From a virus (taxonomy: Duplodnaviria; Caudoviricetes): 56,682 bases of DNA. The DNA lies in IMG/VR virus record IMGVR_UViG_3300028780_000007, positions 1-56,682 of that record; one strand, given 5' to 3'. The position numbers and the translations under genes were made by a program. The notes under the pieces were generated by a model. It was not told the origin of the DNA. It did no database searches and saw only the letters and a list, made by a program, of their open reading frames with translations. Below, piece by piece: positions 123-56,682 of the stretch (position 1 is its first letter; each line of letters starts with the position of its first letter).

Positions 123-148
123 TCCATCTGAAAGGAAGGTGTCCATAT

Positions 149-1039
149 ATGGACGAATCGAAAGCACCGCTTCTTTACACCAGTTGGGCCTCTTTTGAAG
201 TAACCGAGTTCACATATTCCCAGGCAAACGACATGGCCAAATGCGGGATGTATTCCAAGCTCTCTCGCATTGAAGGTTGGACCGACATCCACGAGCGCGC
301 GACCATGCAGTTTGGCAACTGCATTGAGGCTGGCGTCCGCAACTACTACATGAATGGCATCGATCCGATCCAATCGTTCGCGGACGAATGGGCGCGCCGC
401 AAGAAGTGGAACCTCGAGTACAACAAGAAGTCCGGAGATTGGTCCGAGATGGACGGCCTCGGCCGGAACTTGATGACTCAATTGCTCGCCAGCGACGGAA
501 AGATCACCGGGGACGACATGCAGGAGCATTCTCTTCAGGGCTTCACGTTCAATGAGAAGCTGACGAAGCCTGATTGGTACAAGGGAACGCCGCTTGTGTA
601 CATCGCGGACGCGTACAAGCCGGGCGAGATCGTTATTGATATCAAATGTTTAGGCGCGAAACTTTCCGACGAAGATAAATTTAAGGGTTTCGTTGCCCTC
701 GACCCACAACTTCGTACTGGTGCGCTAGTGAGCGGGGCTCGCCGGGTAGGATTCATGAATTTCATCCGCACAAAAACGAATCCACGGATTCAATGGAAAG
801 AGGTAGCGGTCACCGAAGACTTGATCGTCGACATCGATCTTTGGTTAAAAGATCAATACGACAAATTGATGGGAAGAAAATTCCACCGCAACGCTGGGAT
901 TCGCTTTCCTTCTTCTCAGTGCACTTTTTGTTCCATGCTGCCGATCTGCACGAACAACGAGACGCTGGCAAAAGAAACGTTGCGCAGAAAAGAGGCGCGT
1001 GACACGGAAACTGAATTTTTGAGTCTTGATGATGATTGA
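149..1039 (+). CDS. PD-(D/E)XK nuclease (RecB/AddB/Cas4-like)
   Basis: 296 aa; E...YIAD...VIDIK catalytic motif, QL motif, N-terminal Cys plus C-terminal CxxCxxxxxC. Confidence 0.75.
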   Translation: MDESKAPLLYTSWASFEVTEFTYSQANDMAKCGMYSKLSRIEGWTDIHERATMQFGNCIEAGVRNYYMNGIDPIQSFADEWARRKKWNLEYNKKSGDWSEMDGLGRNLMTQLLASDGKITGDDMQEHSLQGFTFNEKLTKPDWYKGTPLVYIADAYKPGEIVIDIKCLGAKLSDEDKFKGFVALDPQLRTGALVSGARRVGFMNFIRTKTNPRIQWKEVAVTEDLIVDIDLWLKDQYDKLMGRKFHRNAGIRFPSSQCTFCSMLPICTNNETLAKETLRRKEARDTETEFLSLDDD

Positions 1040-1045
1040 TTTTGT

Positions 1046-1135
1046 GGTGAGTCATGCCAAGGCTGGGCCTGGTGGGTTCAGGTAAGGCGAGATTTGGCGA
1101 GCAGCGGTCAGGTAAGTTATGGCGTGGTAAGGTCA
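1046..1135 (+). repeat. phased GGY-NN pentamer tract 1 (18 units), candidate guide RNA
   Basis: Perfect 5-nt phase; all 18 units start with G and 12 are exactly GGC/GGT; last two bases vary. Confidence 0.85.
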
Positions 1136-1154
1136 AAAATCTAAAGGAGAATAA

Positions 1155-1772
1155 ATGGCAACAGCACCAGTAACAGAAATAAACAACGTTTCAAATGATG
1201 CGGAGTTTACGATCGACATGAGCGTGCCGTACACGGCGTTCATAAAGGTCAAGGGAGTTTCTCCGTTTATTTTCCATAGGTGGTCCGTTGAAGATGTTGC
1301 GGCAAAGGGAGCGGCAGCGAAGGGCTCGAAGGCCAAGAAGGAAGACAATCTCGAGTCGTACGTGTATCGCGATGCAAAAGGGATCCTTTCAATTCCGGGG
1401 GAATATTTCCGCATGTCGATTATTCATGCGGCACGGTACAAACAAGATCCTCGGTCGCCGCGAAAAAGTGCGATGGATCTTTTCAAGGCCGGCATTGCTG
1501 TTCTCGAAGAATACTGTCCGCTTGGTTTTAAGGAATGGGATTACGTTGATCGGCGTCGTGTGGTGGTACAAAGGAATGGGATCACGCGCGCTCGGCCAAC
1601 GATGCGAGAGGGATGGGAGTGCAAGGTTCAACTTGAGGTTTTAACGCCGGAATATATTAGTCAAGCGCTTTTGAACGAAACCGTCGCGATGGCTGGCCGA
1701 CTGATCGGCGTTGGAGATTTCCGTCCGAGTTTTGGAAGGTTTCAGGTTGTCGATTTCAAGACAACTAGATAA
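1155..1772 (+). CDS. stand-alone RAMP/Cas7-like protein (Vipr-like)
   Basis: 205 aa; RBS AAGGAG; N-terminal IKVKGVSPFIFH strand, LSIPGEYFR segment, RARP, C-terminal Gly-rich loop AGRLIGVGDFRPSFGRF typical of RAMPs. Confidence 0.75.
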   Translation: MATAPVTEINNVSNDAEFTIDMSVPYTAFIKVKGVSPFIFHRWSVEDVAAKGAAAKGSKAKKEDNLESYVYRDAKGILSIPGEYFRMSIIHAARYKQDPRSPRKSAMDLFKAGIAVLEEYCPLGFKEWDYVDRRRVVVQRNGITRARPTMREGWECKVQLEVLTPEYISQALLNETVAMAGRLIGVGDFRPSFGRFQVVDFKTTR

Positions 1773-1779
1773 GTTTTCT

Positions 1780-1974
1780 GGCGGGGCGTGGTAGGTCGTT
1801 GTGGGGCACGGTGTGTTGAGGTTAGCTTTGGCATGGTGCGGTTCGGTGAGGCCCGGTTAGGCCCGGTGTGGTTCTTTTGGGACTGGTCGAGTGAGCTTTG
1901 GAATGGTGAGTCCGGGCAAGGTACGGCATGGTCCGTTCGGGCGGGGCGTGCTTAGGAGCGGTATGGCGAGGTTA
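1780..1974 (+). repeat. phased GGY-NN pentamer tract 2 (39 units; two 19-unit halves split by TTTTG at 1875-1879)
   Basis: Unbroken 5-nt phase; 26 of 39 units are exactly GGY and most others differ by one base. Confidence 0.9.
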
Positions 1975-4107: not shown

Positions 4108-4351
4108 GAAGTGCCGGGTCGATTACGATGACGCCGACTGTTCGACGATCTGTCCTCACAGTCAGATTATGTCGGATGAAAACTTGAAGCAGAAGAAGGC
4201 CGCGATCGAGCTATTTGGCCACGACGTGTGCTTTGCGCACGAGCCGAATGGCAAGCGGTATCACATCCAGGCAATGGGCTGGAACGGGATGCTCACGCTT
4301 GTTGGGATGTCCGGGGAATTCGCTCCGCATCTGTTTGTTAAAGCAAAATGA
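4091..4351 (+). CDS. small Cys-rich hypothetical protein
   Basis: 86 aa, CEKC...CPH, GGAGG RBS. Confidence 0.55.
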   Translation: MQRMCEKCRVDYDDADCSTICPHSQIMSDENLKQKKAAIELFGHDVCFAHEPNGKRYHIQAMGWNGMLTLVGMSGEFAPHLFVKAK

Positions 4352-4455
4352 CGGCCGAAGAAATCACGTTTGTTTGGGTAATTGGAATAACTTGTGGTTT
4401 CGTCGGCCTTATAATTGGCGGCGTGATCGGCTACCACATAAAGAAGTGGGGATGA
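4348..4455 (+). CDS. small single-TM peptide
   Basis: 35 aa, ATGA overlaps at both ends. Confidence 0.5.
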   Translation: MTAEEITFVWVIGITCGFVGLIIGGVIGYHIKKWG

Positions 4456-5336
4456 AGATGAAGAACAGCGAACGATTACTGCGGTACGTGAACAAACGTC
4501 CAGATATGGACGTTTTGCCGCCGCGGCCTGGCGACAAGGTGGACGTCGTAGAGTTCTACGTGCGTCAGCTAAAGCTGCACAAGCCATTGGACATTCCGGA
4601 TCTTGTGTTGTCGAGGATGATATTGCATTCTTCGGGGTTGTGGGTATCCGAACGCAAGTCACTTGAGCTTACCGATCTTGCCCAGTTTCCAGTACCGCAG
4701 ATGCCACAATCCGGTTTTTTGTTTAGTATTGGTTCGGCCACTCCGTCTATGGTGTGGACGGGTGTTGACGAAGCAGAAAAGAATCCCATCCCTCCGGACT
4801 CTGCGTCATTTGAAATGAATCTGACCGAGGCGCTGGTTGGATGGCGAGTTTGGCATGTCGGTCGCGATGGATTTTTGCGATCGATTTATGCGCACAACGG
4901 TAAATTTAAGGCGAAATGGATGCCCGACGTACCGATGGAGTCAGCGTGCAAACACAACCATGAAGTCCCTGCCGAGTTCTGTCAGTGTGGCGTGTACGCC
5001 AGCGATTCTCGAGAGGAGGCCGAAGATCGGATAGTGGATCATGGGATTATTTTAATCGTTGGCGAGGTCTACGGTTGGGGTCGTTACGTCCGCGGCGACA
5101 GTGGATGGCGTGCGCAGTACGCGTATCCGAAAGCGTTTCACGTTGGTCGCGAAAGTTTTTCACCAGATGTCTTTGATAATTTGCGGCAATACCATGTCCC
5201 CGTTTACGTTGATCAGCCCACGTTGTTTTATAACCCGGAGGATGACGGATATGAAAATCGGCAAGAAGACACGTACGGGAATAGCGGAACCGATCCGGAG
5301 CCCGATGCCGGTGAAAGCGCCGGCGAAGACGCCTGA
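4452..5336 (+). CDS. hypothetical phage protein with Cys/His cluster
   Basis: Start re-called at coupled ATG; GWRVW...CKHNH...CQCGVYA...GWRAQYAYP. Confidence 0.65.
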   Translation: MKMKNSERLLRYVNKRPDMDVLPPRPGDKVDVVEFYVRQLKLHKPLDIPDLVLSRMILHSSGLWVSERKSLELTDLAQFPVPQMPQSGFLFSIGSATPSMVWTGVDEAEKNPIPPDSASFEMNLTEALVGWRVWHVGRDGFLRSIYAHNGKFKAKWMPDVPMESACKHNHEVPAEFCQCGVYASDSREEAEDRIVDHGIILIVGEVYGWGRYVRGDSGWRAQYAYPKAFHVGRESFSPDVFDNLRQYHVPVYVDQPTLFYNPEDDGYENRQEDTYGNSGTDPEPDAGESAGEDA

Positions 5337-6357: not shown

Positions 6358-6783
6358 GTGAATCAATTTACAACTAAGGTTTTACTTTGGTACAGCATGA
6401 TGTACGGGTGTTTCAAGACACTACCGAATAAGGAAAAGAAAGCTCTCGAAAGATGGGAAACCTTCAACGGTTGTACATCTGATTGGCCCGGCTGGGAGAA
6501 ATACATTGGTAAGCGGCCGGCGCCGCCTCCTTGCGTAAAAATAAAAACAGCGTTCGTTTCATCGCACCTGAAGCTTTTAATTTTCAAACGCGACGGCTAT
6601 AAGTGCGTGTGGTGTTCCTCGGCAGTTGATCTGGTACCCGATCATATCGTTCCGAGCTCCCGTGGCGGCCCAACCACGATCGACAACCTTCGGACTCTTT
6701 GCGCAAAATGCAACAATTCCAAAGGCAGAAGGCTCGATAGTGAGATGAAAAAAGGGGGCGCGCGTGAGCTCGAAGGACGTTAA
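6358..6783 (+). CDS. HNH endonuclease
   Basis: RDGYKCVWC...DHIVPSSRGG...NLRTLCAKCN; GTG start after GGAGG. Confidence 0.85.
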   Translation: MNQFTTKVLLWYSMMYGCFKTLPNKEKKALERWETFNGCTSDWPGWEKYIGKRPAPPPCVKIKTAFVSSHLKLLIFKRDGYKCVWCSSAVDLVPDHIVPSSRGGPTTIDNLRTLCAKCNNSKGRRLDSEMKKGGARELEGR

Positions 6784-8228: not shown

Positions 8229-10180
8229 GATCGGATTCCGAACTCAACGAGATTCGCAATCGCGTCTCGATCGTGGACGTCATTTCTCACTACACGCGCG
8301 TGGTGAAAGAGGGCGCCGGGTTCAAGGCCGTGTGTATCTTCCACGCGGACAAGAATCCGTCGATGAGTATCGATCCGGAGAAGCGAGTTTTTCACTGTTT
8401 CGGTTGTTCTGCGGCCGGTAATGTATTTCAGTTCGTTGAGAGAGCAGAGAAAATATCTTTTGAGGAAGCGGTAAAGAAGCTTGAAGGCGATCGTCCATAT
8501 CTGGACGAATCAAAAAAAGTTAGTTCCACGTTTCAGCGATTCTCAAACGCCGTGGAGTGGCCGATCGACAAGTGGATGCCGTGCCACAAAGCGGCGATGG
8601 AAAGTCAGGAGCTCGCCAAGGAATTCGCGGCGCGCGGGATTAAGTTCGAAACCATCTATCGTCATCACATCGGATTCATTCCTACCGGAGAGAAGTTGGT
8701 TTCCCAGAACGATGAAAGATTGGCATCGTTTCGCAAGAAGCCGTGGATTGGCTTCGCCTACGTGTACGGCCAAACCGTGCGGATGATCAAGTGGCGCCCG
8801 TTCTTTTCTGTCGGCAAGGAATTCATGCGCATCAAGGGCATGGCCGAAGTTCTTTACGTGGACAATCCGGAGCCCGATTCTTTGGAAGAAATTTTACTCG
8901 TTGAAGGAGAGATGGATGCCTTGACTTTATGGCAGTGTGGATACCGTGCGGCGTCGCTACCTTCGGGCTCGCAATCGAAGATCACTGGCGAGATGTCGGA
9001 TTACCTCGGTGGCTTCCGGAATATTTATCTTTGCGTGGACAACGACGACGCTGGAAAGCTTTGCCTTCGCCGGCTGTTGAAGATTCTCCCCGCGGATAAA
9101 ACGCGGATAGTTACCGTGCCGGCCGAGCATAAAGATGTGAATGGGATGTTTGTGAAGGGCTGCGGGGCCGACGATGGCGCGTTTCGTTTGGTGATGGACA
9201 AGCTTTTGAGCGAGGCTGAAAAGCCTTCGTCAGTAGCGTTCGAGTCGTTGGACAAAGCGTTTGAGGCGTACATCCGGTTTCTGGGAGATGAAGGAAACAA
9301 AGAGAAGTTTTTCGAGTTGCCGTGGCGCGCGGCGGACAACATGGTTGTGTTCGCGCCAGGTCAGACGGCCACGCTCGCGAGCACTCGGAGTAAGCAGGGC
9401 AAAACTTCGTTTATGATCCAAACGGCTATGCACAACGCGCTCTATCGCGCGCGGCGCATCGGCTACTACACCGCCGAAATGGATCTGGTCAAAGAAATGA
9501 TTCCTATGATCACCGCGCAAATCATGCGGCAGGATCGCAACCACCTGGAAGTGGACGACGTGGAGCAGGCACGCAATCGTTGCGTGGGCGCCGAGTTTTA
9601 CTTTGGTTACGATCCTGCGGCGCAGACCTGGGAAGACGTTGCGGCGCTGATTGACATGGCTGTTCGCCGGTTAGGTTTGGATGTGGTGATCATCGACCAC
9701 TTGGACTACATCATTCGCGAGCCGGATTTTCGCAAAGAGATGTCGGCGAAAAGCATGGCCATGAAGTATTTCAGCGAGCAGTTGGCCAAGAAGTACGGGA
9801 TCCTCGTGTGGATTTTGCGGCAATTCAACAAGCCGCATCAAACGAGCGGGAAAAAGCGAGATGAGCCTGGAGATATTTACAGCGTTCCCGGTTCGATTTC
9901 TGGAATTACGGACGTGCATCATGCGTTCATTCTTTGGCGCAAGATGGTTGCTTCGCTCGAGGAGAGCGGTTCCGGGGACGCGTACGAGAACGAATCGAAG
10001 CTGATTTTGGGGCTTACGCGCGCGAAAGGCACGGGCGGCCGTGTATGTAATTTGCAGTTTAATGGGAAATTTGCCAGATTCGATCGGCCGAACAGTAGTG
10101 ACGAAAAAGGCCCCGATGGAAAAGTCGTAGAGATGCCAGCGCCGCAAACTAATCTACCTTATCGGGATGCCCCGGATTAG
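8225..10180 (+). CDS. primase-helicase fusion (CHC2 Zn finger, TOPRIM, DnaB-like helicase)
   Basis: CIFHADKNPS...FHCFGC; VEGEMDAL and DNDDAG; QGKTS Walker A, VVIIDHL Walker B. Confidence 0.9.
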   Translation: MRSDSELNEIRNRVSIVDVISHYTRVVKEGAGFKAVCIFHADKNPSMSIDPEKRVFHCFGCSAAGNVFQFVERAEKISFEEAVKKLEGDRPYLDESKKVSSTFQRFSNAVEWPIDKWMPCHKAAMESQELAKEFAARGIKFETIYRHHIGFIPTGEKLVSQNDERLASFRKKPWIGFAYVYGQTVRMIKWRPFFSVGKEFMRIKGMAEVLYVDNPEPDSLEEILLVEGEMDALTLWQCGYRAASLPSGSQSKITGEMSDYLGGFRNIYLCVDNDDAGKLCLRRLLKILPADKTRIVTVPAEHKDVNGMFVKGCGADDGAFRLVMDKLLSEAEKPSSVAFESLDKAFEAYIRFLGDEGNKEKFFELPWRAADNMVVFAPGQTATLASTRSKQGKTSFMIQTAMHNALYRARRIGYYTAEMDLVKEMIPMITAQIMRQDRNHLEVDDVEQARNRCVGAEFYFGYDPAAQTWEDVAALIDMAVRRLGLDVVIIDHLDYIIREPDFRKEMSAKSMAMKYFSEQLAKKYGILVWILRQFNKPHQTSGKKRDEPGDIYSVPGSISGITDVHHAFILWRKMVASLEESGSGDAYENESKLILGLTRAKGTGGRVCNLQFNGKFARFDRPNSSDEKGPDGKVVEMPAPQTNLPYRDAPD

Positions 10181-16366: not shown

Positions 16367-16813
16367 ATGAACACTGCGGCTAAAGGTCGGCGCCTTTTGA
16401 ACAAAACTGTGGCGAAGCTCAAGGAAATGGGCGCGCTTGCGGTTTTCCCGGCTAAAGGACTTCATCGCGGAGCTACGCATGGTGAGGGAATTCACCAAGT
16501 GGATTTAATCGCCTTCTTTGAAGATCATGTGGCGTGGGTGGAGTCGACCGACAAAAACCACCGTTCTCGAGCGCGAAAATACTTGCAAGCGTTGCCGGTA
16601 TTTCCCGTGATATACGTTTTGAGATTTATGGTTTTTGCTTGGGAAGAGAAGAATCCACACCCACTCATAGAAATTGTTCATGTTAAGCTACCGTCCATAT
16701 CTGGACGCGACTGGAGTAACGCCAATGCCGATGGTTCCAACGATGCTCGATTGCCCGACGTGCCTGAAGGAAGGGAAGCACAACCGTCTGAGCCGCGACG
16801 TACTGACGGATGA
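16367..16813 (+). CDS. putative Holliday junction resolvase-like nuclease
   Basis: MNTAAKGRR...VDLIAF...WVES; PD-(D/E)XK-like but degenerate. Confidence 0.45.
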   Translation: MNTAAKGRRLLNKTVAKLKEMGALAVFPAKGLHRGATHGEGIHQVDLIAFFEDHVAWVESTDKNHRSRARKYLQALPVFPVIYVLRFMVFAWEEKNPHPLIEIVHVKLPSISGRDWSNANADGSNDARLPDVPEGREAQPSEPRRTDG

Positions 16814-19431: not shown

Positions 19432-19474
19432 TCGGTTCTCCTTTTTTTGCGTTTGTCCATATATGGACGATTCG

Positions 19475-22474: not shown

Positions 22475-22502
22475 AATGCTCCTTTGTCCATATATGGACG
22501 AT

Positions 22503-25446: not shown

Positions 25447-25929
25447 TCATAGGTTTGCAAGAATATTGCGCGCTTCGGCGAGAGACTGACAAGCGGCCCA
25501 CCAATCAAGGATTTCAGGGCCACGGGAGCGGAGATATTCGGTTAAAGCGCGGCTGTATGAGCGTTCGAGCCAGTCAATACCCGCGTTGCGGCGGGTTGAG
25601 GTGAGGCGGAAGCCCTTCTCTGGGCAGAGAGTAGCAGGGCTTCCGGTTTGTGTGGCGGGAACGTCTGTAGGTAGGTGCGCTGAGGAATCGGTATTAAAGG
25701 ATGCTCCCCCGTCAAGTTGTGCGCTCGCGGTTACGCGCGTAACCTGTTGAGTAGCAGTAACTTGCCCCGTCGAAGCATCCATTGATACTGATTCTTGCAA
25801 TTCTTGAGGTAGAAACTTAATCGCTGTCCATGTGTCCTCCGCGTCCATATATGGACGCGGGGCTGTACCAGTACGCGCGTCTCCTTTGCCGCCGTCGAAC
25901 AGCCCCGCTTGAGAGTCTGTGTTTCTCAT
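25447..25929 (-). CDS. hypothetical protein, possibly near-leaderless
   Basis: 160 aa; ATG lies 9 nt downstream of a -10 box. Confidence 0.4.
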   Translation of the reverse strand: MRNTDSQAGLFDGGKGDARTGTAPRPYMDAEDTWTAIKFLPQELQESVSMDASTGQVTATQQVTRVTASAQLDGGASFNTDSSAHLPTDVPATQTGSPATLCPEKGFRLTSTRRNAGIDWLERSYSRALTEYLRSRGPEILDWWAACQSLAEARNILANL

Positions 25930-25967: not shown

Positions 25968-26163
25968 GTACCAGGACTACGAATAGTCAAAGAAAGTTTA
26001 TAAGTAGGTACAGTACTCATAGTAGTACTAGTCTAATTTCCGCTTCTGCACTCTTATCAAGCTGTTTCGCGTCGATAATCGCACAAAATTGTCCAGATAT
26101 GGACGATCCTGAAACGTGAGTACTGGGCCTTGACTAGGGTGATACCCTCGGTGAAATGGACGA

Positions 26164-31215: not shown

Positions 31216-31266
31216 TTATGTAATTCCCTAAAGTTCGCCGTCCATATCTGGACGGCAGGAGAAAAA

Positions 31267-34533: not shown

Positions 34534-34561
34534 AATTTCATTTGTCCAGATATGGACGAAT

Positions 34562-39231: not shown

Positions 39232-39273
39232 AATCCCTTGCTGTCCATATATGGACAAGCGTAAACTCGCCGT

Positions 39274-42925: not shown

Positions 42926-44961
42926 TGCGCCTTAATCGCAAAGATCCATATCTGGACGATGCGCTCGAATTGCTGGATCGCCATATCGAGAAGGCCAATG
43001 GCGATTTCCGGCTGGCGTATACCTTTCTTACTCCGCACGAATTAGTTTTCATCGACGGCGAGATTGAGAAATGTGTTTCAAACTTCCGCTACTACGCTGA
43101 AAATTACCACGTTATCGCTTCGGAATATGAAGGCCACAAAGTTCTCCATCCTTGGTGGGATAGTCAAGAAATCTTCTATGAAAAAGTTTTCGAGATTCAA
43201 ATTGCAGGGAAACCGGTTCGCATTATCGTTCTGAAAGCGCGTCAGCTTGGCCTGTCCACAATTTGCCAAGCGCTTACTTTCCACAAAACGATTTTCACGC
43301 CTAGTTGTAATACTTTGATCATCGCGCAGGATCCTGGACAAGCCGACTATCTCTTTAGCATGTCTCGTACGGCGTACGAAAGTTTGCCGTGGTGGATGCG
43401 GCCAGAAACCCGTTACGAAGCCAAGTCAAGGTATATGGTCTTCGATCGCAAGGATCCTACTGAGCGCATGATGAGTCCTGGATTGCGATCGCAGATTTTC
43501 GTCGATGCGGCCAACAAAATGACTGGTGCTGCCGTTGGAAAAACTATCCGTGCGGTTCACATGAGCGAGTTGAGTGAATGGGACAATGCCTCGATTTTGA
43601 CCGAGAACCTTTTCCCGACCATGAACGCACCTGATGAATTGGCAATCATGGAGTCTACGGCGCGCGGAACCGTTGGTTTTTGGTACAGGTTTTGGAAGTC
43701 GGCGATGGAGGGAAAGACCGACTGGCAACCAGTTTTCATTGAGTTTTTCCGGGTTAAGAAATATTCGACTTCAATTCCGGCCGGCGAGAAATTTGAGCTT
43801 ACGCCGGAAGAGGTTGCGCTTCGCGGGAAGGTTAAGAAAGAAGCAAACTTTGATTTGGCTGACGAGCAACTCAAGTGGCGTCGAGACAAGATCAACGAGT
43901 TCATTGCGGCTGATGGGGAAGAATGGGGATTCTATCAGGAGTATCCGGGCGCCACATGGCTCGAGGCGTTTCAGGGCAGTGGTTTGTGTGCTTTTGACAA
44001 AAGGAAGCTTCAGACAATGCTCGAGACGCAGTGTTGCCCTCCGATTTTGTTTGGTGAAATTGATTTGGACCGAGAAAAAGACGGAAAGCTTCGGCCTCAC
44101 CTAAAGGCCATGCGCAAGGTTGACAGGAACACGCTTATTCCGCCGCAAGAAAACTACGGATCAAGGCTTCACATCTGGGAGAAACCGATAGCTGGGGAAA
44201 GATATTCTATCGGAGCCGACGTCGCCCAGGGAATTCTGGGTGGCAATTATTCTTGTGCCCAGGTTTTCAAGATCGGCAAAGGAATGAAAAAAGACGAACA
44301 GGTCGCCGAATGGCATGGGTTAATCAACCCAACGCCGTACGCTTCCGTTCTTGCTGGGCTTGGTTTTTATTACAACACCGCTGAAATCGCCGTCGAGTGC
44401 AACAACGACGTTGGCGGAACGACCAACAACCAATTGTTGCGTGTGATCGAATACCCGAATATGTTCCGGTGGAAGCACTACGACAAGATCAAGAATTACT
44501 TCTCCGACTTCATGGGCTGGTACACCAATTCCAAGACTCGCGGTCAGATCATCACAAAGATGCGGGAGAGCATCAGCGACGGGACGATTATAATTCGCAG
44601 CGAGGCTATGATTGAGGAAATGCGGAACTTCGCTAGGGAAGAGGGAGAGCGAAGGTATGAGGGTCAGGGGACCGACGACGACCGTGTAATGTCCGGGATG
44701 ATTTGTATTTTCTGCCCGCACGATATGGATTGGGGCGTGGACAAGACCGAATCGGAGGAAGAGGACGAAGAGACGATCCGGAAAAGGAAGAGAGAGGATT
44801 ACATCAACACCGATTACGCGCCGGCTTTCGAGGGGTCGAGGAAGAAGAACCTTCCGCCAGGGAAAGCACAGTTGCCCAGCGAGCTTGGTTTGCCGACAGA
44901 TATGACCACTTCGCAGATTCGTTCCGATGTGCCCGAAGAAGATCAGTGGAAGCTTCTTTAG
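42925..44961 (+). CDS. terL: terminase large subunit
   Basis: IIVLKARQLGLST, HMSE, MESTARG, QEYP, IGADVAQG, VECNN, DDRVMS. Confidence 0.92.
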   Translation: MRLNRKDPYLDDALELLDRHIEKANGDFRLAYTFLTPHELVFIDGEIEKCVSNFRYYAENYHVIASEYEGHKVLHPWWDSQEIFYEKVFEIQIAGKPVRIIVLKARQLGLSTICQALTFHKTIFTPSCNTLIIAQDPGQADYLFSMSRTAYESLPWWMRPETRYEAKSRYMVFDRKDPTERMMSPGLRSQIFVDAANKMTGAAVGKTIRAVHMSELSEWDNASILTENLFPTMNAPDELAIMESTARGTVGFWYRFWKSAMEGKTDWQPVFIEFFRVKKYSTSIPAGEKFELTPEEVALRGKVKKEANFDLADEQLKWRRDKINEFIAADGEEWGFYQEYPGATWLEAFQGSGLCAFDKRKLQTMLETQCCPPILFGEIDLDREKDGKLRPHLKAMRKVDRNTLIPPQENYGSRLHIWEKPIAGERYSIGADVAQGILGGNYSCAQVFKIGKGMKKDEQVAEWHGLINPTPYASVLAGLGFYYNTAEIAVECNNDVGGTTNNQLLRVIEYPNMFRWKHYDKIKNYFSDFMGWYTNSKTRGQIITKMRESISDGTIIIRSEAMIEEMRNFAREEGERRYEGQGTDDDRVMSGMICIFCPHDMDWGVDKTESEEEDEETIRKRKREDYINTDYAPAFEGSRKKNLPPGKAQLPSELGLPTDMTTSQIRSDVPEEDQWKLL

Positions 44962-48253: not shown

Positions 48254-48258
48254 TTGAA

Positions 48259-48625: not shown

Positions 48626-48653
48626 CCGTCCATATCTGGACGTTTGAGGGTCA

Positions 48654-50100: not shown

Positions 50101-50233
50101 CAAGTTTCGGCTTTACCGGAAGGGGAAACCCGCAGTCGGTAAGAGCCAGTGGATGTGAAGACTGAAGGGAAGCCGAGTGGCGCAGCCTGAAGGTCTGGGG
50201 TTGTTGAATTAAATTCAGCGGAGGAACGAGAAA

Positions 50234-51196: not shown

Positions 51197-51211
51197 GGGG
51201 GAGGAACTCAC

Positions 51212-51793
51212 ATGGCCTTCGCGATACCAAGCGATTACGCAACATCAGTACAAACCGCCGAAGTGTACACGGGCGCTTTCTCGACCGTGAACGACGCCTA
51301 CATCGCTTCTCCGGGCTTGTCCCAGGGAGCGATTGGGCTTACCAACGGCGCGCGCAACCCTCTTGGCCGAACGGTGTACTCAACCGATTTGACAACCGGA
51401 CGTCGTTTCAAAAACAAGTACGTCCGGTTGAATTCGACCACCACGGCAACTCTCATCGTCGGTCCTGTGTATTACAAGGACGAAACGTTTGAAGTTGTCA
51501 CCATCCAATCCAGCGAATCGCAGTTCGGAGTCAACGGCATCGCCGGCATCTTGTTGAACGTCAACGCCACAAACGGGAATTACGTTTACATTCTCACGAA
51601 CGGAATTCTCGCGGGCGTGGCGGTTCCGGCTTCAACAGCGGCAGGTGACTGCTTGATCGGTGCAGCCGGCGCGCAGGCACTTGCCCGCGTGGCGGCAAAC
51701 ACCGCTCCGACCAACCGGAAGTGCGCTTGGGCGCTCACTGCGGTTGCAAGCGGCGTTTCGGATATCTACGTCGAAGTCGACGACCTCGGCTAA
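51212..51793 (+). CDS. putative capsid decoration protein
   Basis: Follows the capsid gene; Ala/Gly/Thr-rich beta protein. Confidence 0.6.
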   Translation: MAFAIPSDYATSVQTAEVYTGAFSTVNDAYIASPGLSQGAIGLTNGARNPLGRTVYSTDLTTGRRFKNKYVRLNSTTTATLIVGPVYYKDETFEVVTIQSSESQFGVNGIAGILLNVNATNGNYVYILTNGILAGVAVPASTAAGDCLIGAAGAQALARVAANTAPTNRKCAWALTAVASGVSDIYVEVDDLG

Positions 51794-51807
51794 AAGGGGA
51801 GGACAGC

Positions 51808-52143
51808 ATGGCGATCGGAATAACTCTAATAGCCGATGGAAACGATGTTTGGGGAAGGACCAGGATTCAGCAATTCCTGGCGGCTCTCGACACTTCGTAT
51901 CCGACTGGCGGGTATCCAATCACGCCCGCGCAACTTGCGTTGCGAACCATCTTGGGCATTATCGTTCGTGCGGTGAATACCGGATTCGTGACTAATTCGG
52001 CGACGTTTGCCGGGTTAATTCCGGTCTGGAATACCACCACCGGGAAGCTGCAACTTATTGTGGCTTCAACCGGCGCGGAGTTGGCTAACGCCTCGAACGT
52101 AAGCGCAACAGTTCTTACCTTGGAAGCTGCCGGTCCTGGGTAA
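51808..52143 (+). CDS. putative virion protein
   Basis: GGAGG RBS; DTSYPTGGYPI...ELANASNVS. Confidence 0.65.
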   Translation: MAIGITLIADGNDVWGRTRIQQFLAALDTSYPTGGYPITPAQLALRTILGIIVRAVNTGFVTNSATFAGLIPVWNTTTGKLQLIVASTGAELANASNVSATVLTLEAAGPG

Positions 52144-52250
52144 AGAAAAGATCTTTCGGGGCGCACGCAACGGCCCGGAAGTAGAGACACCGGATTTGGC
52201 GGACCATCTGCACTGCCCGCAGATGGTCCGCTGTAATCCTGGAGGTTCCC

Positions 52251-52559
52251 ATGGGCGGTTTTGACCCTTCTGCTGGTCTTGATCCATCGGCGCTTGCAAG
52301 CAGCATTTCCGGATCTCCGTCCGGAGCTATGGGCGGTGATTCTGCGGCCGTTAGTTCCGGCCGGAACGCTCAGATGACCGATCGAATGCTCCCGAGGATG
52401 CCGGGCGCGCGCGCTCGAGCTCCGAAGGGACCGTCTTCAAAGCCTCGATCGAAAAATCCTGGGGCTTCCATGCGTGGAGCGATCAAGAGGATCGGTAAGC
52501 CGCGGCGCCGTACAGGAATCCGCTTGTCGGGCGGCGGTGGTCGTAGGCCAAAGTTTTGA
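52251..52559 (+). CDS. Gly/Ser/Arg-rich basic protein
   Basis: GGAGG RBS after a long hairpin. Confidence 0.5.
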   Translation: MGGFDPSAGLDPSALASSISGSPSGAMGGDSAAVSSGRNAQMTDRMLPRMPGARARAPKGPSSKPRSKNPGASMRGAIKRIGKPRRRTGIRLSGGGGRRPKF

Positions 52560-52676
52560 GGCTGGAATGTCCAATGGTGTCTTCAGAATTCCGCAACGCG
52601 GTCCCACGCGCCTGAAAGGGCGTTTTGCTATTTCCTTCCAAACGTCCAGATATGGACGAATCGTAAAGCAGGTTTC

Positions 52677-53627
52677 ATGCCGGTAACTGTCTTAACTTCG
52701 CCGAATACTCAGGCGCCGAGCACGCAGCTTAATGCTGCGCAGATGTGGGGCGAGGTGCTTCAGTGGAATCCGGACGCGCCGATAATGATGGCGAAGCGCT
52801 GGATCCAGAACAGCTATCGCAAAATCATCGATTTCCGTTTGTGGTCTGGGCTGGTTTACAAGGGCCAGGTAATTGTGCCGGCGTCTTACACGACCGGGAC
52901 GGTGACGGTAGTTACTGGTTCGAATTCGGTGCAGGGAGTTGGAACGGCCTTCACTTCGTCGATGGTGGGCGAGCAGTTCCGCGTGGGATTTACGAACCCG
53001 ATTTACACGATCAATCAAGTCAATGTGGGCTCTCAGGTTCTCACATTGGATTTGCCGTACGGGGGAACGTCGATCGCTCAAACCGGCTATCAGATTTTCC
53101 AGAACTTGGTGAACTTCGGACCGAATCTGAAATATCTTTTTCAGTGCGTGAATCAGAAACAGGGCTACGCAATGCAGTTGAATGTGCCGCAGAACGTTTT
53201 GAATATCCGAGATACATGGAGGACGGCGACCGGTTGGACATATCTAGTTTCTGATCGCGAGATGTCGCCAGCCGGCATTCCGCAAAAAGAACTCTATCCG
53301 ATTCCAACGTTCGCGCAGTCGTTTCCGTTTTTGGCGTACGCGCAGCCGCCAGATTTGAATGGCCCGGAAGATTTTCCGTATCCGTTTATCCGCTCGGATG
53401 TGATTGTGCTTGGCGCCATTGCTGACGCGCTCGTGTTCCGCGGGAAAAACTCGAAGTATTACGACCCGCAGACTTCGATGATGAAACGGAACGAGCAAGC
53501 GCTCGAGATGCAGATGATGGGCGTAAGAGACAACGAACAGATCCAGAAAGATTTGATTTGGGAATTCGATCGCTGGCCGCTTTACCAGATGGGCGCAGAT
53601 TTTTTTCAAACTCACGACGCGGAGTGA
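52677..53627 (+). CDS. putative head-tail adaptor
   Basis: Position; YTTGTVTV...VQGVGTAFT insert; ELYPIP motif. Confidence 0.6.
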   Translation: MPVTVLTSPNTQAPSTQLNAAQMWGEVLQWNPDAPIMMAKRWIQNSYRKIIDFRLWSGLVYKGQVIVPASYTTGTVTVVTGSNSVQGVGTAFTSSMVGEQFRVGFTNPIYTINQVNVGSQVLTLDLPYGGTSIAQTGYQIFQNLVNFGPNLKYLFQCVNQKQGYAMQLNVPQNVLNIRDTWRTATGWTYLVSDREMSPAGIPQKELYPIPTFAQSFPFLAYAQPPDLNGPEDFPYPFIRSDVIVLGAIADALVFRGKNSKYYDPQTSMMKRNEQALEMQMMGVRDNEQIQKDLIWEFDRWPLYQMGADFFQTHDAE

Positions 53628-53631
53628 TTTT

Positions 53632-53787
53632 ATGGCACACGGTAAGAAAGAAACGCCGGCCGACGAAATGCGCGAGCAGCGCCAAGGAAAGCACGGGAGG
53701 GGAATCCTTCTTCTCGTCATCCATCACGGCGGCGGGCGCAAGGACGCTGGCAAGCGCATGAAGGCGCCGCGCGGCGGGAGGCGGTAA
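53632..53787 (+). CDS. small basic protein
   Basis: 51 aa MAHGKKETPADE...GGRR; TAATG-coupled to next gene. Confidence 0.5.
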   Translation: MAHGKKETPADEMREQRQGKHGRGILLLVIHHGGGRKDAGKRMKAPRGGRR

Positions 53788-53975
53788 TGCCGGGCGGCGG
53801 CACAGGGCTCGTAAGCGGGAACATCAATATGTCCGCTGATGTGGCGCCGTCGCACGGCGGCAATTTCAATTTCCCGTCCATGAAGAAGGGCGGACGAATC
53901 AAGAAGACCGGGGTGTATCGCTTGCATCGCGGCGAACGGGTCGTGCCGGCGCGTAAAGCTGGTCGGAGGAAGTAA
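53787..53975 (+). CDS. small basic GG-KKTG-HxGE motif protein 1
   Basis: MKKGGRIKKTGVYRLHRGERV. Confidence 0.7.
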   Translation: MPGGGTGLVSGNINMSADVAPSHGGNFNFPSMKKGGRIKKTGVYRLHRGERVVPARKAGRRK

Positions 53976-54145
53976 TGGGCGCAACGAATCCAAATCAGGC
54001 TCAATTGGAAGAGATGGCCATCGGCAATGCGATGGGCTCTTTCAAGCGTGGTGGCAAGGTGAAGAAGACCGGCCGGTATCTCGTCCATAAGGGTGAACGG
54101 GTGGAGAAGGGTCGTAAGAAGGAACGGTCTGATAGGAGGAAATAA
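53975..54145 (+). CDS. small basic GG-KKTG-HxGE motif protein 2
   Basis: 56 aa; FKRGGKVKKTGRYLVHKGERV. Confidence 0.7.
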   Translation: MGATNPNQAQLEEMAIGNAMGSFKRGGKVKKTGRYLVHKGERVEKGRKKERSDRRK

Positions 54146-54147
54146 TC

Positions 54148-54258
54148 ATGCGCATCATGGCTGCTGGTGGTGGTCTTGGTGGTCCCGGTAGTTCTAAGGG
54201 TGGTCCGGTAAAAAAGACGCGTCCCGCAAAGAAAGACCGTGGCGGTCGGAGGAAATAA
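54148..54258 (+). CDS. small basic peptide with partial motif
   Basis: 36 aa; SKGGPVKKT; AGGAGG RBS. Confidence 0.5.
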   Translation: MRIMAAGGGLGGPGSSKGGPVKKTRPAKKDRGGRRK

Positions 54259-54611
54259 TGGAAATCCCAACTGCGGCAACAACGGATGATGCAGCGCTTT
54301 CATCGGGGATGAAAGACAAGGCGCGCTCGGCGGGGATTAAGGCCGGGCTGGCGTCGGCTGGAAAGACTCTTTCTTCCGAGATGAACAAACGGCCTTCCAG
54401 TGCTCCTCGATCGGGCGGTTCTTCCGGTGGTGGGGGCGGCCCGGTTTCTGGCCCGGTGGGACGTCCGATGCCGGCAATGCCAGCGATTGGATCGTTCAAG
54501 AAGGGCGGTCGCGTCAAGAAGACTGGTAATTATCGCGTCCACAAGGGTGAAAGAGTCGAGAAGGGGCGCAAGGGCGAACGTAAGAGCGAGCGCAAGGGTG
54601 GACGGCGGTGA
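54258..54611 (+). CDS. small basic GG-KKTG-HxGE motif protein 3
   Basis: FKKGGRVKKTGNYRVHKGERV. Confidence 0.7.
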   Translation: MEIPTAATTDDAALSSGMKDKARSAGIKAGLASAGKTLSSEMNKRPSSAPRSGGSSGGGGGPVSGPVGRPMPAMPAIGSFKKGGRVKKTGNYRVHKGERVEKGRKGERKSERKGGRR

Positions 54612-54847
54612 GGCGTACCGGGTTCCCCGGCCTCTCCTCCGCGAAGCTCAATACGCCAACGCGCGAAGGGATCGGCAAGGGGAAGTTGGCTACTGAGGCT
54701 GCTGGAACGCGCACGGAAGCTAGGAAGCCGATGGGATCGTTTAAGCACGGTGGCCGGGTGAAGAAGACGGGGCCTTACAAATTGCATCGCGGCGAGCGAG
54801 TCGAAAGGAAAGAACATGGAAGGGACGGCGGACGGTCTAGGCGTTGA
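54608..54847 (+). CDS. small basic GG-KKTG-HxGE motif protein 4
   Basis: FKHGGRVKKTGPYKLHRGERV. Confidence 0.7.
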   Translation: MRRTGFPGLSSAKLNTPTREGIGKGKLATEAAGTRTEARKPMGSFKHGGRVKKTGPYKLHRGERVERKEHGRDGGRSRR

Positions 54848-55118
54848 TTGTGCTGGTTGCGGCAAGCGAGTGCGGCATTATTTCGTGATCGTCGGGAAAG
54901 GCGATTTTTGTTCTGCGTGCGCGCCGGTTGCCAGATACCAGGGCAAATCAACTTTTCCGTTTACGACCACGAATATCAACGGGAAGTCGATTGAGGTTCA
55001 ATCGCTAAAACATCTTCGGAGTTTGGAGAAAGAACACGGTGTCCAATCTTTCGCTTACAACATGGACAATCCGGAAGCGCCGAGACACAACCGAGAGGTA
55101 AGGGAGGTACGGAAATGA
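54816..55118 (+). CDS. Zn-ribbon protein
   Basis: CAGC...CSAC; IEVQSLKHLRSLEKEHGV. Confidence 0.6.
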   Translation: MEGTADGLGVDCAGCGKRVRHYFVIVGKGDFCSACAPVARYQGKSTFPFTTTNINGKSIEVQSLKHLRSLEKEHGVQSFAYNMDNPEAPRHNREVREVRK

Positions 55119-55396
55119 AACCCAAGGGCACACATTTGGATTTGTTGGGATCTCCGGAGAGTCTTTTAGACGACAAGTCTCCGATGAACGACATCCCGGC
55201 CGGCGCGCAGATGGGCGAGGACGATTGCCGCCATCACATTCGCCGGAAGAACTTTTTGAACGAGGGAGAGGAGGTTACAAACTCTCTCGGGCTGCGCGCG
55301 TCGGTGTCTACCGATTGCGGGCAGACGAAGACGGAGCCGGATGAGAACGGGGCGTACGGCGGTTTTATGACGCATTCGCACACGAAGGGTGAGTAA
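55115..55396 (+). CDS. hypothetical protein
   Basis: GGAGG RBS, coupled. Confidence 0.6.
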   Translation: MKPKGTHLDLLGSPESLLDDKSPMNDIPAGAQMGEDDCRHHIRRKNFLNEGEEVTNSLGLRASVSTDCGQTKTEPDENGAYGGFMTHSHTKGE

Positions 55397-55407
55397 GGGA
55401 GGAAGAT

Positions 55408-55950
55408 ATGGCGCAGCGCGCGACTCGCTATTATGCAATTGCGGCCGGTGGATCGCCGCAGCCAGTTTTTGGGACGAAACTGACGGCCGCGGCTGCGGCT
55501 TCTAAAAACCCTGTCACTCTCGTGGTGGCTGACAGTTCGCCGTTTTTTGTGAACGAGTTCGCGGTTCTTGAACCCTTGGCTTCTTTCCCAGAACGTCAAA
55601 GGGTAACTGCAATTCCAGATTCCACGCACGTCACGGTCGCGGGACTTCAGTTTGCTCACGCGAGCGGTGTTTACGTTGCGCTCGGCGCGCAGTTGAGCAG
55701 TCTCTACATTCAAGCCAAAGACGGAAATGTTGGGGCGCTTTATATTGGAAACAATCCAAATTTGAAGAAGGATACTGGATCACCGGCCGGGCAGTCTTTG
55801 ATTGTGAAACTTCAAGTTGTTGGAGCCGGTGGCCAGCCGTTCGATTTCAATTCCACGACGTCGGGAATCACGGATGCTGGGTCGGCGTCCGAGTGGTGGA
55901 TCGACGGAACGACCGGCGATCTTTATCTTCCTTCTTTCACGCAGGTATAA
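55408..55950 (+). CDS. putative virion structural protein
   Basis: 180 aa beta-rich; IQAKDGNVGALYIG. Confidence 0.65.
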   Translation: MAQRATRYYAIAAGGSPQPVFGTKLTAAAAASKNPVTLVVADSSPFFVNEFAVLEPLASFPERQRVTAIPDSTHVTVAGLQFAHASGVYVALGAQLSSLYIQAKDGNVGALYIGNNPNLKKDTGSPAGQSLIVKLQVVGAGGQPFDFNSTTSGITDAGSASEWWIDGTTGDLYLPSFTQV

Positions 55951-55952
55951 CG

Positions 55953-56682
55953 ATGAAAAAGATCATCGGATTTTTGATTCTGGTCCTCGCTTCTTGCTCG
56001 TCCATATATGGACAAACAAGCGGCGGGGGAGGGGGCGGCCAAGTTGGCGGCGGCAATGTCACGGTGCAAGGAACCGTGACACCGAACGATTGCGCGAAGT
56101 TCGTTTCGCCAAACGTCATTACGGACACTGGGGCGACCTGTAGCGGAGGCGGCGGGGGCAGCGTCACCGTCGTTACTGGCACCACGAACCAAATAGACGT
56201 AGCGACTGGAACGACGACGCCGGTTGTGTCGCTTGACCCGAACATCATCGGCAATTTTACAAACTACACTTCTTCGGGAATGTCTTTCCCTGCCGTCACG
56301 GTGACACCGACAGGAGGCACGCAAGGTTCGGTCAGTTGTACGAGCAATTGCTATATCTATTACGTGGTCGCAACGGATTCTCAAGGGTTGACTCGCACTG
56401 TGTCAGGCTCAACCAGCGCGGGACCGACGACTCTCAGCGGTGCCGCTTACAACACCGTCACCGTGGCGGCGTTCACTGGGGCGGACTCGCCCGTAGGGAC
56501 TTGCACGGTTTACAGGTCACTAGGCCAAAATCCCCCAACGATTCAGGGCAGCATCGGTACAATCGCATCCTGCGCTGCTGGTGGAACCCTTGTAGACACT
56601 GGTTTGACAGCCACCGCTGGCAGTCCTCCGAGTGATTCAAGCGGCGTACTGACTGCGATAGGAGCAATCAACCCTTCGTCGA
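55953..56682 (+). CDS. Gly/Thr-rich fibre-like protein with signal peptide (runs off the window)
   Basis: Open from MKKIIGFLILVLASCSSIYGQ; GTTNQIDVATGTTTPVVSL fibre-type repeat. Confidence 0.7.
   Translation, partial: MKKIIGFLILVLASCSSIYGQTSGGGGGGQVGGGNVTVQGTVTPNDCAKFVSPNVITDTGATCSGGGGGSVTVVTGTTNQIDVATGTTTPVVSLDPNIIGNFTNYTSSGMSFPAVTVTPTGGTQGSVSCTSNCYIYYVVATDSQGLTRTVSGSTSAGPTTLSGAAYNTVTVAAFTGADSPVGTCTVYRSLGQNPPTIQGSIGTIASCAAGGTLVDTGLTATAGSPPSDSSGVLTAIGAINPSS

Follow-up and report, generated by a model that had tools for sequence, protein, structure and literature searches.

An evenly spaced, start-associated palindrome in a family of tRNA-rich phages and its possible role as a genome-wide operator

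The palindrome and its setting in the window

The 56,682-bp stretch of DNA analysed here (the window) is the virus record IMGVR_UViG_3300028780_000007 (Duplodnaviria; Caudoviricetes), which is estimated to be 54% complete, and it carries 15 copies of a 14-bp palindrome, GTCCAKATMTGGAC, recurring about every 4 kb. The window belongs to a phage family with tRNA-rich genomes of roughly 100 kb from peat and soil metagenomes, some contigs of which were binned with Acidobacteria. Its genes lie on the plus strand, save for a minus-strand block at ~18.5-25.9 kb, and 33 tRNA genes, covering most amino acids, are packed into 7.6 kb (31607-39231; ~31.6-39.2 kb). Pfam and PHROG scans identified the protein-coding genes listed in Table 1; in the same scans of the window no integrase, RNA polymerase or sigma factor was found and no transposase gene was seen.

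The preliminary description of this DNA had listed 15 copies of the palindrome, and all of its coordinates and sequences proved correct: 14 copies are exact matches and one, at 42944 (ATCCATATCTGGAC), has a single mismatch. When up to two mismatches were permitted, the window yielded no copy beyond these 15. The excess over background is clear, as 100 dinucleotide-preserving shuffles gave expected counts of 0.00 for exact matches and 0.31 at up to two mismatches.

The variant GTCCAGATATGGAC (four copies) and the variant GTCCATATCTGGAC (four exact copies and the one-mismatch copy) are reverse complements of each other; therefore, the palindrome is a single dyad-symmetric site, in which a T>G change is tolerated in either half and never in both. 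T6>G and A9>C, which are the same change read on opposite strands, are the only variants in the window (4 and 5 copies), and all nine copies that carry them fall in plus-strand-gene or tRNA regions. An alignment of 19 sites, composed of the 15 window sites and four new ones from a near-identical record (G001), revealed that the symmetry continues outward, with a pyrimidine at -1 in 18 of the 19 sites, a purine at +1 in all 19 and A at +2 in 14. The actual unit is about 18 bp long and reads tY-GTCCAKATMTGGAC-Ra. The bases flanking the core are Y on the left and R on the right without Watson-Crick covariation, a left T being accompanied by a right G in 6 of 7 sites.

The gaps between successive copies are 4357, 3995, 8200, 2762, 3031, 3357, 248, 5149, 3304, 4699, 3701, 5684, 4016 and 3356 bp, which corresponds to 15 copies per 56.7 kb, or 19 per ~84 kb with the G001 extension. 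The quasi-even spacing reported earlier was borne out, the gaps having a coefficient of variation of 0.43; sets of 15 positions drawn at random averaged 0.91 (P=0.0007), and 15 randomly drawn gene starts gave 0.93 (P=0.0008).

The placement of the copies relative to genes was evaluated on explicit gene calls. Nine of the 15 sites end at most 25 nt 5' of a called start codon or overlap one, compared with 6.1% of positions expected (P=3.9e-8); eight of them lie 11-23 nt before the start, five of these eight with a separate Shine-Dalgarno-like sequence in between, and one overlaps the start itself. Likewise, nine of the 15 sites are wholly outside coding and tRNA sequence, compared with 11.1% of positions (P=7e-6). 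Two layouts recur: at 22486 and 48628 a stop codon is followed by 2-3 nt, the palindrome, 11-12 nt including a Shine-Dalgarno sequence and the start codon, and at 31240 the order is palindrome, AGGAG and ATG. At a divergent gene pair, one copy stands by each gene (25843 and 26091). Copies are present ahead of structural genes (48628, 52644) as well as in the tRNA arrays. The placements given earlier, namely the primase-helicase (8493), the terminase (42944), the tRNA region and the vicinity of start codons, are accurate. The same description had held that even spacing argues against simple promoter operators. This is not borne out by the start-codon and intergenic enrichment and by the conservation of sites before orthologous genes described below, which point to a role in gene expression rather than to parS/matS/Noc-like organisation or self-marking.

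Of the four copies inside genes (4498, 8493, 42944 and 56000), three encode (R/D)P(Y/D)(L/M)D in one frame. At the position homologous to 8493, the primase of the related genome G008 reads DPELE and its DNA holds the motif in degenerate form only; a pre-existing peptide may therefore have eased the origin of the copy at 8493. The copy at 56000 lies in one of two paralogous predicted lipoproteins (window 55953-56681; G001, reverse complement, ~19470-19600), whose signal peptides end in a lipobox Cys with SSIYGQT after it, and the palindrome is embedded in the codons at the identical place in both paralogues.

Table 1. Palindrome sites, other features of the window and palindromes of related records
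Feature	Position	Sequence or basis	Context
Site 141	141..154	GTCCATATATGGAC	Overlaps ATG (149) of open reading frame (ORF) 149-1039; 18 nt 3' of the -10 element of a sigma70-like promoter (TTGAAA 94-99, 17-nt spacer, TAGAGT 117-122)
Site 4498	4498..4511	GTCCAGATATGGAC	Within ORF 4215-5336 (ORF start tentative; codons RPDMD); 46 nt past in-frame ATG 4452
Site 8493	8493..8506	GTCCATATCTGGAC	Within primase-helicase, codons 90-94 (RPYLD), directly after the Zn-ribbon domain
Site 16693	16693..16706		17 nt 5' of ATG 16724 (ORF to 17207), GGAG in between; overlaps 3' end of ORF 16229-16813
Site 19455	19455..19468		23 nt 5' of ATG 19431 (minus-strand ORF 19198-19431), AAGGAG in between
Site 22486	22486..22499		Minus-strand block, 28-nt intercistronic gap; 3 nt past stop of ORF 22503-22979, 11 nt before GTG 22474
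Site 25843	25843..25856		12 nt 5' of ATG 25830 (minus), GGAGG in between; local palindrome reaches 22 bp; end of ~90-nt leader of sigma70-like promoter near 25925-25965
Site 26091	26091..26104		59 nt 5' of ATG 26164 (plus); second copy in divergent intergenic region
Site 31240	31240..31253		13 nt 5' of ATG 31267, AGGAG in between
Site 34544	34544..34557		In 28-nt spacer between tRNA-Ser (34446-34533) and tRNA-Ile (34562-34635)
Site 39243	39243..39256		11 nt past last tRNA (39156-39231), 17 nt 5' of ATG 39274, the first late-region gene; heads block with XRE candidate gene; syntenic with G004 site 3304
Site 42944	42944..42957	ATCCATATCTGGAC, one mismatch	Codons 7-11 (DPYLD) of terminase large subunit 42925-44961
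Site 48628	48628..48641		2 nt past stop of ORF 48437-48625, 12 nt before ATG 48654; syntenic with G004 12597 and G005 35581
Site 52644	52644..52657		19 nt 5' of ATG 52677 (tail-fibre-like); syntenic in G005, G013 and G015
Site 56000	56000..56013		Codons 16-21 of predicted lipoprotein ORF (ATG 55953, lipobox LASC)
Replication initiator-like gene	6764-7747	Pfam/PHROG scans
Primase-helicase	8225-10180	Pfam/PHROG scans
RecA	13208-14425	Pfam/PHROG scans
RyR-domain protein	31702-32061		Small ORF among the tRNA genes
tRNA-like match	38217-38288	Rfam	Additional to the ARAGORN list
Endonuclease VII	38585-39013		Small ORF among the tRNA genes
Candidate binder (putative)	39725-40393	N-terminal CxxC...CxxC zinc ribbon and XRE-type HTH_3	Plus strand; third gene of block headed by site 39243
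Terminase large subunit	42925-44961	Pfam/PHROG scans
P22/SU10-type portal	45610-47553	Pfam/PHROG scans
Major head protein	50234-51196	Pfam/PHROG scans
Terminator-like hairpin	52600-52632	CGCCTGAAAGGGCG and T tract	12 nt 5' of site 52644, between head module and tail-fibre-like gene
Tail-fibre-like gene	52677-53627	Pfam/PHROG scans
HNH and endonuclease VII genes	Several in window	Pfam/PHROG scans
Second conserved motif (9 copies)	94-122, 10930-10975, 19106-19134, 23741-23769, 25925-25965, 35085-35125; also 32676, 37575, 40282	CGCT(C/T)GCTGTTT(T)	Copy at 100 inverted within TTGAAA-N17-TAGAGT
Palindrome of G000/G001 (under study)		GTCCAKATMTGGAC	15 copies in window, 19 with G001
Palindrome of G004		gcGTCCAAATTTGGACgc	16 copies by the search pattern used
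Palindrome of G005		CTCCAAATTTGGAG	19 copies
Palindrome of G006/G007		AGTCC-N7-GGACT	6-8 copies
Palindrome of G008		acRTCCAAATTTGGAYgt	12 copies
Palindrome of G010		GTGCAC-N2/3-GTGCAC	10 copies
Palindrome of G011		GTAAACC-S-GGTTTAC	8 copies
Palindrome of G013		aTTCCAAAWTTTGGAAt	16 copies
Palindrome of G015		agTCCAAAWTTTGGAst	17 copies
Palindrome of G017		GTACC-N1/2-GGTAC	7 copies

Counterparts in related phages and a candidate reader

A blastn search of the phage collection with 7 kb of the window structural region gave no match. Relatives were found through the terminase, which revealed a large family with contigs of ~90-110 kb; 172 members were confirmed in the viral collection, 80 of which were listed. 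The near-identical record G001 is 97.9% identical to window 38842-56122 and extends ~28 kb beyond it; it retains all five palindrome sites that it shares with the window and has four additional ones. A survey of 12 lineages, each represented by a full genome or a large part of one, and of three small fragments (G027, G028 and G029) revealed that 10 of the 12 lineages possess a recurrent palindrome of their own. The lineage palindromes include GTCCAAATTTGGAC, CTCCAAATTTGGAG, TCCAAAWTTTGGA and those given for G006/G007 and G010 in Table 1. No recurrent palindrome was found in G009 and G012, and no relevant repeat in the three fragments. Three groups of repeats were set aside in this survey: the TCCCAATTGGGA copies of G028 sit in tRNA variable arms, the 12-mers of G012 are a coding repeat and the repeats of G009 are terminal tandem repeats.

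Although the motif differs among lineages, its positions are maintained. In the window, G005, G013 and G015 the local palindrome stands before the tail-fibre-like gene (52677 and its relatives); it stands before 48654 and its relatives in the window, G004 and G005, and before 39274 and its relative in the window and G004. The G005 match of 31267-31602 (41% over 46 amino acids, E 9e-5) likewise has the palindrome of its own phage ahead of it, as 31267 does in the window. Nine of the 19 sites in G005 read GGAG-N5-7-ATG/GTG, with the 3' arm at Shine-Dalgarno distance; the GGAG arm is at this distance in many sites of G013 and G015 as well, and in G015 the upstream TAG stop often directly adjoins the left flank of the palindrome. 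Comparison of these genomes indicates that the site sets evolve in concert, the positions before orthologous genes being kept while the motif sequence changes. As ~20 sites are identical within a genome and different between genomes at maintained positions, mere hairpin formation cannot be the selected property. Because the sites are kept before orthologues despite the differing motif, a sequence-specific trans-acting factor is needed, and this predicted reader must co-evolve with its sites.

The same observation bears on the proposal that the copies are selfish REP- or MITE-like palindromes spread into tolerated intergenic gaps, which we regard as most improbable. The motif is genome-specific, hairpin-capable, multi-copy and mostly intergenic, and an IS605-type TnpB gene adjoins one copy in G008. 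On the other hand, the units are only 14-18 bp long and lack flanking duplications, and the maintenance of positions before orthologues across differing motifs implies co-evolution in place rather than insertion. No transposase was seen in the window, and only a TnpB gene was seen, in G008, no search aimed at RAYT having been made.

As for the protein that might read the sites, XRE-type helix-turn-helix (HTH) proteins are the only recognisable candidates, and the zinc-ribbon/XRE protein encoded at 39725-40393 is the leading, though unproven, one. Among the five ORFs that the preliminary description had put forward as binders, this one (given there as ~39767, HTH_3) is the only one that gained any support. 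ORF 28075-28263, with a Fis-type HTH, was rejected, being without a relative in other phages, and Pfam and PHROG scans gave no DNA-binding signature for ORFs 11216, 16724 and 44974. The nearest solved relatives of the candidate HTH by sequence are XRE regulators, restriction-modification (R-M) controller proteins, SinR and the 434 repressor; XRE regulators of this kind are dimers on short palindromic operators. In the viral collection, a pattern scan recovered the full zinc-ribbon/XRE protein from G000, G001, G004 and G008 only, and these four records are exactly the ones with RTCCA-N4-TGGAY sites. The gene in G008 begins 12 nt behind a site. A further record found by the zinc-ribbon pattern, L336, lacks TCCA-N4-TGGA. 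The G001 copy is 95% identical to that of the window and has two adjacent in-frame stops in the linker that joins the zinc ribbon to the HTH, so that the gene in G001 may be split or inactive.

G013, G015 and G006/G007, which have palindromes of odd length (17 bp), encode an XRE protein of a second, smaller type. The palindrome motif is common to G013 and G015, as are the first residues of the presumed recognition helix (ISK.HA); in G006/G007 both are different. The XRE type follows palindrome parity in six lineages and is not in the order of terminase similarity, the terminases of G006/G007 and G008 being 53% and 46% identical to that of the window.

Recognition of the sites

The dyad symmetry runs through the centre of the sites (ATAT, AATT or AAWTT), which is unpairable in a hairpin. 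The variants in G005 are mirror images too (A6>G/T and T9>C/A). G008 has A or G as the outer base of either half, with five symmetric and seven asymmetric sites; of the 17 sites in G015, 16 and 15 retain the outermost A...T, the base between it and the core being complementary in only 5. Across 117 sites in nine sets, complementarity beyond the core at offsets 1-10 was not above that of shuffled partners (best P 0.05-0.07, at offsets 2 and 4). Seven of the 117 sites have at least four extra pairs beyond the core, three of which are repeats of a longer G010 element. The symmetric centre, the mirror variants and the flanks without covariation favour recognition of double-stranded DNA by a symmetric dimer. 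A dimeric protein acting genome-wide, as had been proposed for this DNA, is accordingly supported as the best reading by the strict symmetry including the A/T centre, the independence of the half-sites and the co-evolving site sets.

The reading we prefer, with a probability of about 0.5, is that the copies are ~18-bp dyad-symmetric double-stranded DNA operators for a predicted phage-encoded dimeric regulator at the 5' edges of gene blocks. We infer the binding of a protein on the DNA, the identity of that protein and the sign of the effect, which would be repression or activation. The sites are found after the stop codon of the upstream gene and ahead of the ribosome-binding site that follows, in leaders of host-type promoters, and in the tRNA arrays. 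A dimer on the site would gate RNA polymerase, either as a roadblock to upstream read-through or by occluding initiation or promoter clearance, and one protein could switch ~20-25 transcription units together over the roughly 100-kb genome. The even spacing would reflect one gate per ~7-gene block, and, as the zinc-ribbon/XRE block starts with a site (39243), autoregulation would be possible.

Alternatively, the sites may act in RNA, as hairpins in 5'-untranslated or intercistronic regions that are read by a sequence-specific RNA-binding factor and control the start of translation, by hiding or exposing the ribosome-binding site, or mark points of processing or stabilisation at which long transcripts would be divided into units, as happens at the RNase III sites of T7. 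This is possible, if unlikely. The position 5-25 nt 5' of start codons, between stop and Shine-Dalgarno sequence, is consistent with it, as are the start codon within the stem of site 141 and the GGAG 3' arm of G005, G013 and G015, which could pair with a CUCC or UUCC 5' arm. The folding energies predicted for eight sites lie between -6 and -20 kcal/mol; for three of the eight only 0-1 of 200 shuffles were as good, and two of the eight did not surpass their shuffles (z -0.5 and 0.0). An RNA element is also favoured by the stems of 9-11 pairs in three of the eight folds, by the seven sites with extra pairs and by the variation of the spacer within G010 and within G017. The T7 RNase III sites, which are evenly spaced and present in every gene module, offer a likeness in its favour, and stems of 5-7 pairs, which are too short for RNase III, count against it. 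An RNA hairpin would leave unexplained that the unpairable centre is still dyad-symmetric and that the variants are mirror-symmetric within one transcript orientation. Moreover, the positions flanking the core are conserved without complementarity, with no covariation beyond the core in the 117 sites, the inter-tRNA site (34544) has no translation to control, and no Rfam family matches the palindrome sites.

Several of these features, together with others, weigh against DNA operators. Within G010 and within G017 the arms are separated by spacers that differ by 1 bp, a variation that a hairpin tolerates better than a rigid dimer, and three of the eight folded sites have longer local stems (9-11 pairs in the minimum-energy fold). 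GGAG from the 3' arm is at Shine-Dalgarno distance in G005, G013 and G015; because the 3' arm serves as Shine-Dalgarno there, the sites are transcribed and a role at the RNA level is possible. The search for the zinc-ribbon/XRE protein was negative in G005, the syntenic place included, and in G009-G012 and G017, and the tblastn match to 39725-40393 in G001 holds the in-frame stops mentioned above. Integrase and resolvase are absent from the complete relative G013, so a genome-wide lysogeny repressor of the L5 kind is not expected, and a literature search found no lytic-cycle precedent. Since G013 lacks these genes, a timing switch of the lytic cycle would be likelier than an L5-type lysogeny repressor. 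Family searches found no integrase family in G001, G007, G008 and G013; the recombinases seen were resolvase-type genes in G007 and G008 and a short tyrosine recombinase in G011.

A more speculative and unlikely possibility is a phage-wide system of punctuation, in which a fast-evolving factor would read an RNA hairpin or an extruded-DNA hairpin heading every gene block, whether early, tRNA or structural, and set the boundaries of translation or transcripts, the factor and its ~20 sites being re-specified per lineage. Such a system would be a genome-scale analogue of the N/boxB or coat-protein/operator pairs that has not been described so far, in a family that may infect Acidobacteria.

It is quite doubtful that the palindrome, or one half of it with the A/T centre, is the core of a phage-specific promoter recognised by host RNA polymerase redirected by a sigma-like factor or appropriator, in which case transcripts would begin within it or immediately 3' of it and have very short leaders. 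About 20-25 copies per 100 kb at block starts are typical of phage-specific promoters, which counts for this proposal. The structural region showed no conserved sigma70-like promoter, and a separate conserved motif of the sigma70-like kind marks 5-6 early and tRNA promoters. The terminator-like hairpin and T tract before 52644 leave only ~55 nt for a new promoter, several genes at most 10 nt behind a site lack a Shine-Dalgarno sequence (37722 and 39582 in G004; 48656 in G008), and G008 encodes a Sigma70_r4 protein. In relatives of phiEco32 and 7-11, the phage sigma promoters are short and asymmetric and consist of a -10-like element only, according to the part of the source that deals with them (PMC4331800). 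Strict dyad symmetry is not explained by recognition of the sigma type, and the centre is inconsistent as a -10 element (ATATAT, AAATTT, AAWTT). The position matrix of the 19 sites contains no hexamer pair of the sigma70 type, and no -35-like element stands at a fixed distance; the weak enrichment of TTG at -19 to -17 (10, 10 and 12 of 19 sites) failed as a -35 element on inspection of the sites, only a few of which have the hexamer. Where the GGAG arm acts as Shine-Dalgarno (G005, G013 and G015), transcription would have to start 5' of the 3' arm, and some copies are 19-59 nt inside genes. Terminators are not enriched upstream of the sites (6 of 82, compared with 7.8% of random positions). 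Searches for a sigma gene were negative in the window, G001 and G004-G007, as were those for RNA polymerase in G008 and G013. A phage sigma was rejected as the common factor, being found in G008 only, and so was an N4-type hairpin promoter for a virion RNA polymerase, since the window, G008 and G013 yielded no polymerase.

The palindromes do not resemble terminators either: no T tract, a feature of intrinsic terminators, lies 3' of the window sites, and a simple terminator scan flagged a single copy, 26091 (minus strand).

The preliminary description had also considered a stoperator-like roadblock, a parS/matS/Noc-like organising site and a self-marking signal. The first is possible; the others belong to a class of functions outside gene expression (anchors, nick or packaging signals, replication priming), in which a dimer folds, marks or processes the DNA, and this we consider very unlikely. 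In its favour, a palindrome of 13-16 bp is the usual form of a ParB, MatP, Noc or SlmA site, and the spacing is more even than random not only in the window but also in G005 (P=0.0007), G008 (0.019) and G013 (0.012); in G004 it was no more even than random (P=0.24). The strong tie to start codons and intergenic positions and the conservation before particular orthologues would be unexpected for such sites. No ParB-like family appeared in Pfam scans of the window (~54% of the genome), G008 and G013, and the known nick sites of phages are asymmetric and one-stranded.

Occurrence elsewhere, known systems and significance

In bacterial genome bins, the closest terminase relatives are on contigs of metagenome-assembled genomes (MAGs) labelled Acidobacteriaceae, Candidatus Acidiferrales and Acidobacteria, which weakly suggests an acidobacterial host. 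One of these contigs, of 102,762 bp, has the size of a whole phage genome and may reflect co-binning rather than integration. A repeat equally abundant in the host chromosome, named earlier as an observation that would speak against a phage function, was not encountered: because the palindrome is absent from three Acidobacteria-labelled MAGs that carry terminase relatives and gave four single hits in 101 genomes from the class of one such MAG (G039), it is not a general repeat of the likely host clade. A scan of viral contigs for exact GTCCATATATGGAC yielded one multi-copy record (G001) and two unrelated records with a close pair, the others being single; among the matches listed for GTCCAAATTTGGAC, most were single hits. 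Near-identical fragments of the window are present as assembled contigs in four RNA libraries labelled peat metagenome; among the contigs listed, none spans a palindrome.

The genomes contain other recurrent or unusual features. The second conserved motif in Table 1 occupies, in five copies, the spacer of a sigma70-like promoter (TTGACR, motif, TAnnnT), and related copies occur in G005 (three), G001 (one) and G008 (one); this set probably represents host-type promoters of the early and tRNA regions with a regulator site in common. In G008, an IS605-type TnpB gene adjoins the Sigma70_r4 gene, with a palindrome copy (21613) between them (20247-22264); the Sigma70_r4 gene was not found in the other records searched. 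The same genome has a 3502-amino-acid ORF (86649-97157) with SNF2 and Strawberry-notch helicase domains and a portal-like PHROG segment, without an RNA polymerase signature or a PDB relative by sequence, and the product may be a polyvalent injected protein. Several terminase large subunits of the family (P0026, P0030, P0040, P0060, P0074, P0083, P0093, P0113 and G008 51949-55191) are 930-1130 amino acids long and have intein or LAGLIDADG Pfam domains, which suggests inteins in the terminase gene. G006 and G007 carry CRISPR-like arrays with ~36-nt repeats of two types starting GTTGCAGACTA, a period of ~66-73 bp and unique spacers (G006 26471-26681, 40178-40395, 40838-41138 and 42915-43047; G007 76114-78983).

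The operators of XRE dimers, such as 434 repressor/Cro, P22 C2 and the C-boxes of R-M controllers, resemble the palindromes in having a dyad of 14-18 bp, conserved arms, an A/T centre and an XRE gene on the same element; operators of the 434 type have conserved outer arms and an A/T-rich, weakly specified centre. Known operators of this kind, however, are present in 2-6 copies at one or two promoters, compared with 15 copies in 57 kb at gene starts here. Regulons in which one repressor acts on ~7-20 dispersed operators are those of RK2 KorA/KorB, P1 C1 and the conserved inverted repeats of phiC31, and the KorA, KorB and phiC31 sites are palindromic. Unlike the sites described here, these belong to plasmids or temperate phages and are at or near promoters, not between a stop and a ribosome-binding site. 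The T7 RNase III sites and the lambdoid boxB nut hairpins are intercistronic and hairpin-capable, early and late, and the specificity of boxB/N co-varies between phages. RNase III sites are long irregular duplexes and nut sites number two per genome, and neither has a dyad-symmetric loop.

The closest system in function is that of the Cluster A stoperators of L5 and Bxb1, described in the relevant parts of the sources as 20-30 copies genome-wide, mostly outside promoters, with a lineage consensus that co-varies with the repressor and with binding that blocks elongation (PMC6550527, PMC9283540). They share with the palindromes the many copies of one motif throughout the genome and the lineage-specific consensus. 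Stoperators, however, are asymmetric, 13-14 bp long, oriented with transcription and bound by a monomeric immunity repressor in temperate phages, whereas the sites here are strict palindromes tied to gene starts, and the complete relative G013 has no lysogeny module. The palindrome set is not a member of the Cluster A stoperators. The closest system in placement is the Cluster K start-associated sequence (SAS) and ESAS, a motif just 5' of many start codons that is kept across subclusters before genes of the same family and whose function is described as still unknown in the parts of the sources concerned with it (PMC3203893, PMC12699233). Both are start-associated repeats, and the G005, G013 and G015 variants share the GGAG core with SAS; the SAS-like placement that includes the Shine-Dalgarno is found only in these variants. 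SAS, however, is non-palindromic, in one orientation, 3-7 bp from the start, always inclusive of the Shine-Dalgarno and confined to the non-structural half of the genome. The palindromes described here lie 5-25 nt before the start, usually 5' of a separate Shine-Dalgarno, and occur in every module, tRNA arrays included.

A search of the literature, supplements being outside its scope, retrieved only the mycobacteriophage analogues and no account of a genome-wide palindrome associated with gene starts in lytic-type phages. The palindrome is a new form of genome-wide phage regulatory repeat, distinguished by strict symmetry, occurrence at gene starts in every module, even spacing and lineage-wise re-specification. 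If the operator reading is true, the whole gene programme of a ~100-kb phage family would be under one dimeric regulator and ~20 identical sites, and the palindrome would be a lytic-type counterpart of the mycobacteriophage stoperators and of the still unexplained start-associated sequences. The candidate protein and its 18-bp site are small enough for direct in vitro work without a host. The palindrome also provides a simple marker of operon boundaries for uncultured phage genomes. As sites and regulator would have been re-specified together in at least 10 lineages, the family would offer a natural series on the joint change of a protein and its operator.

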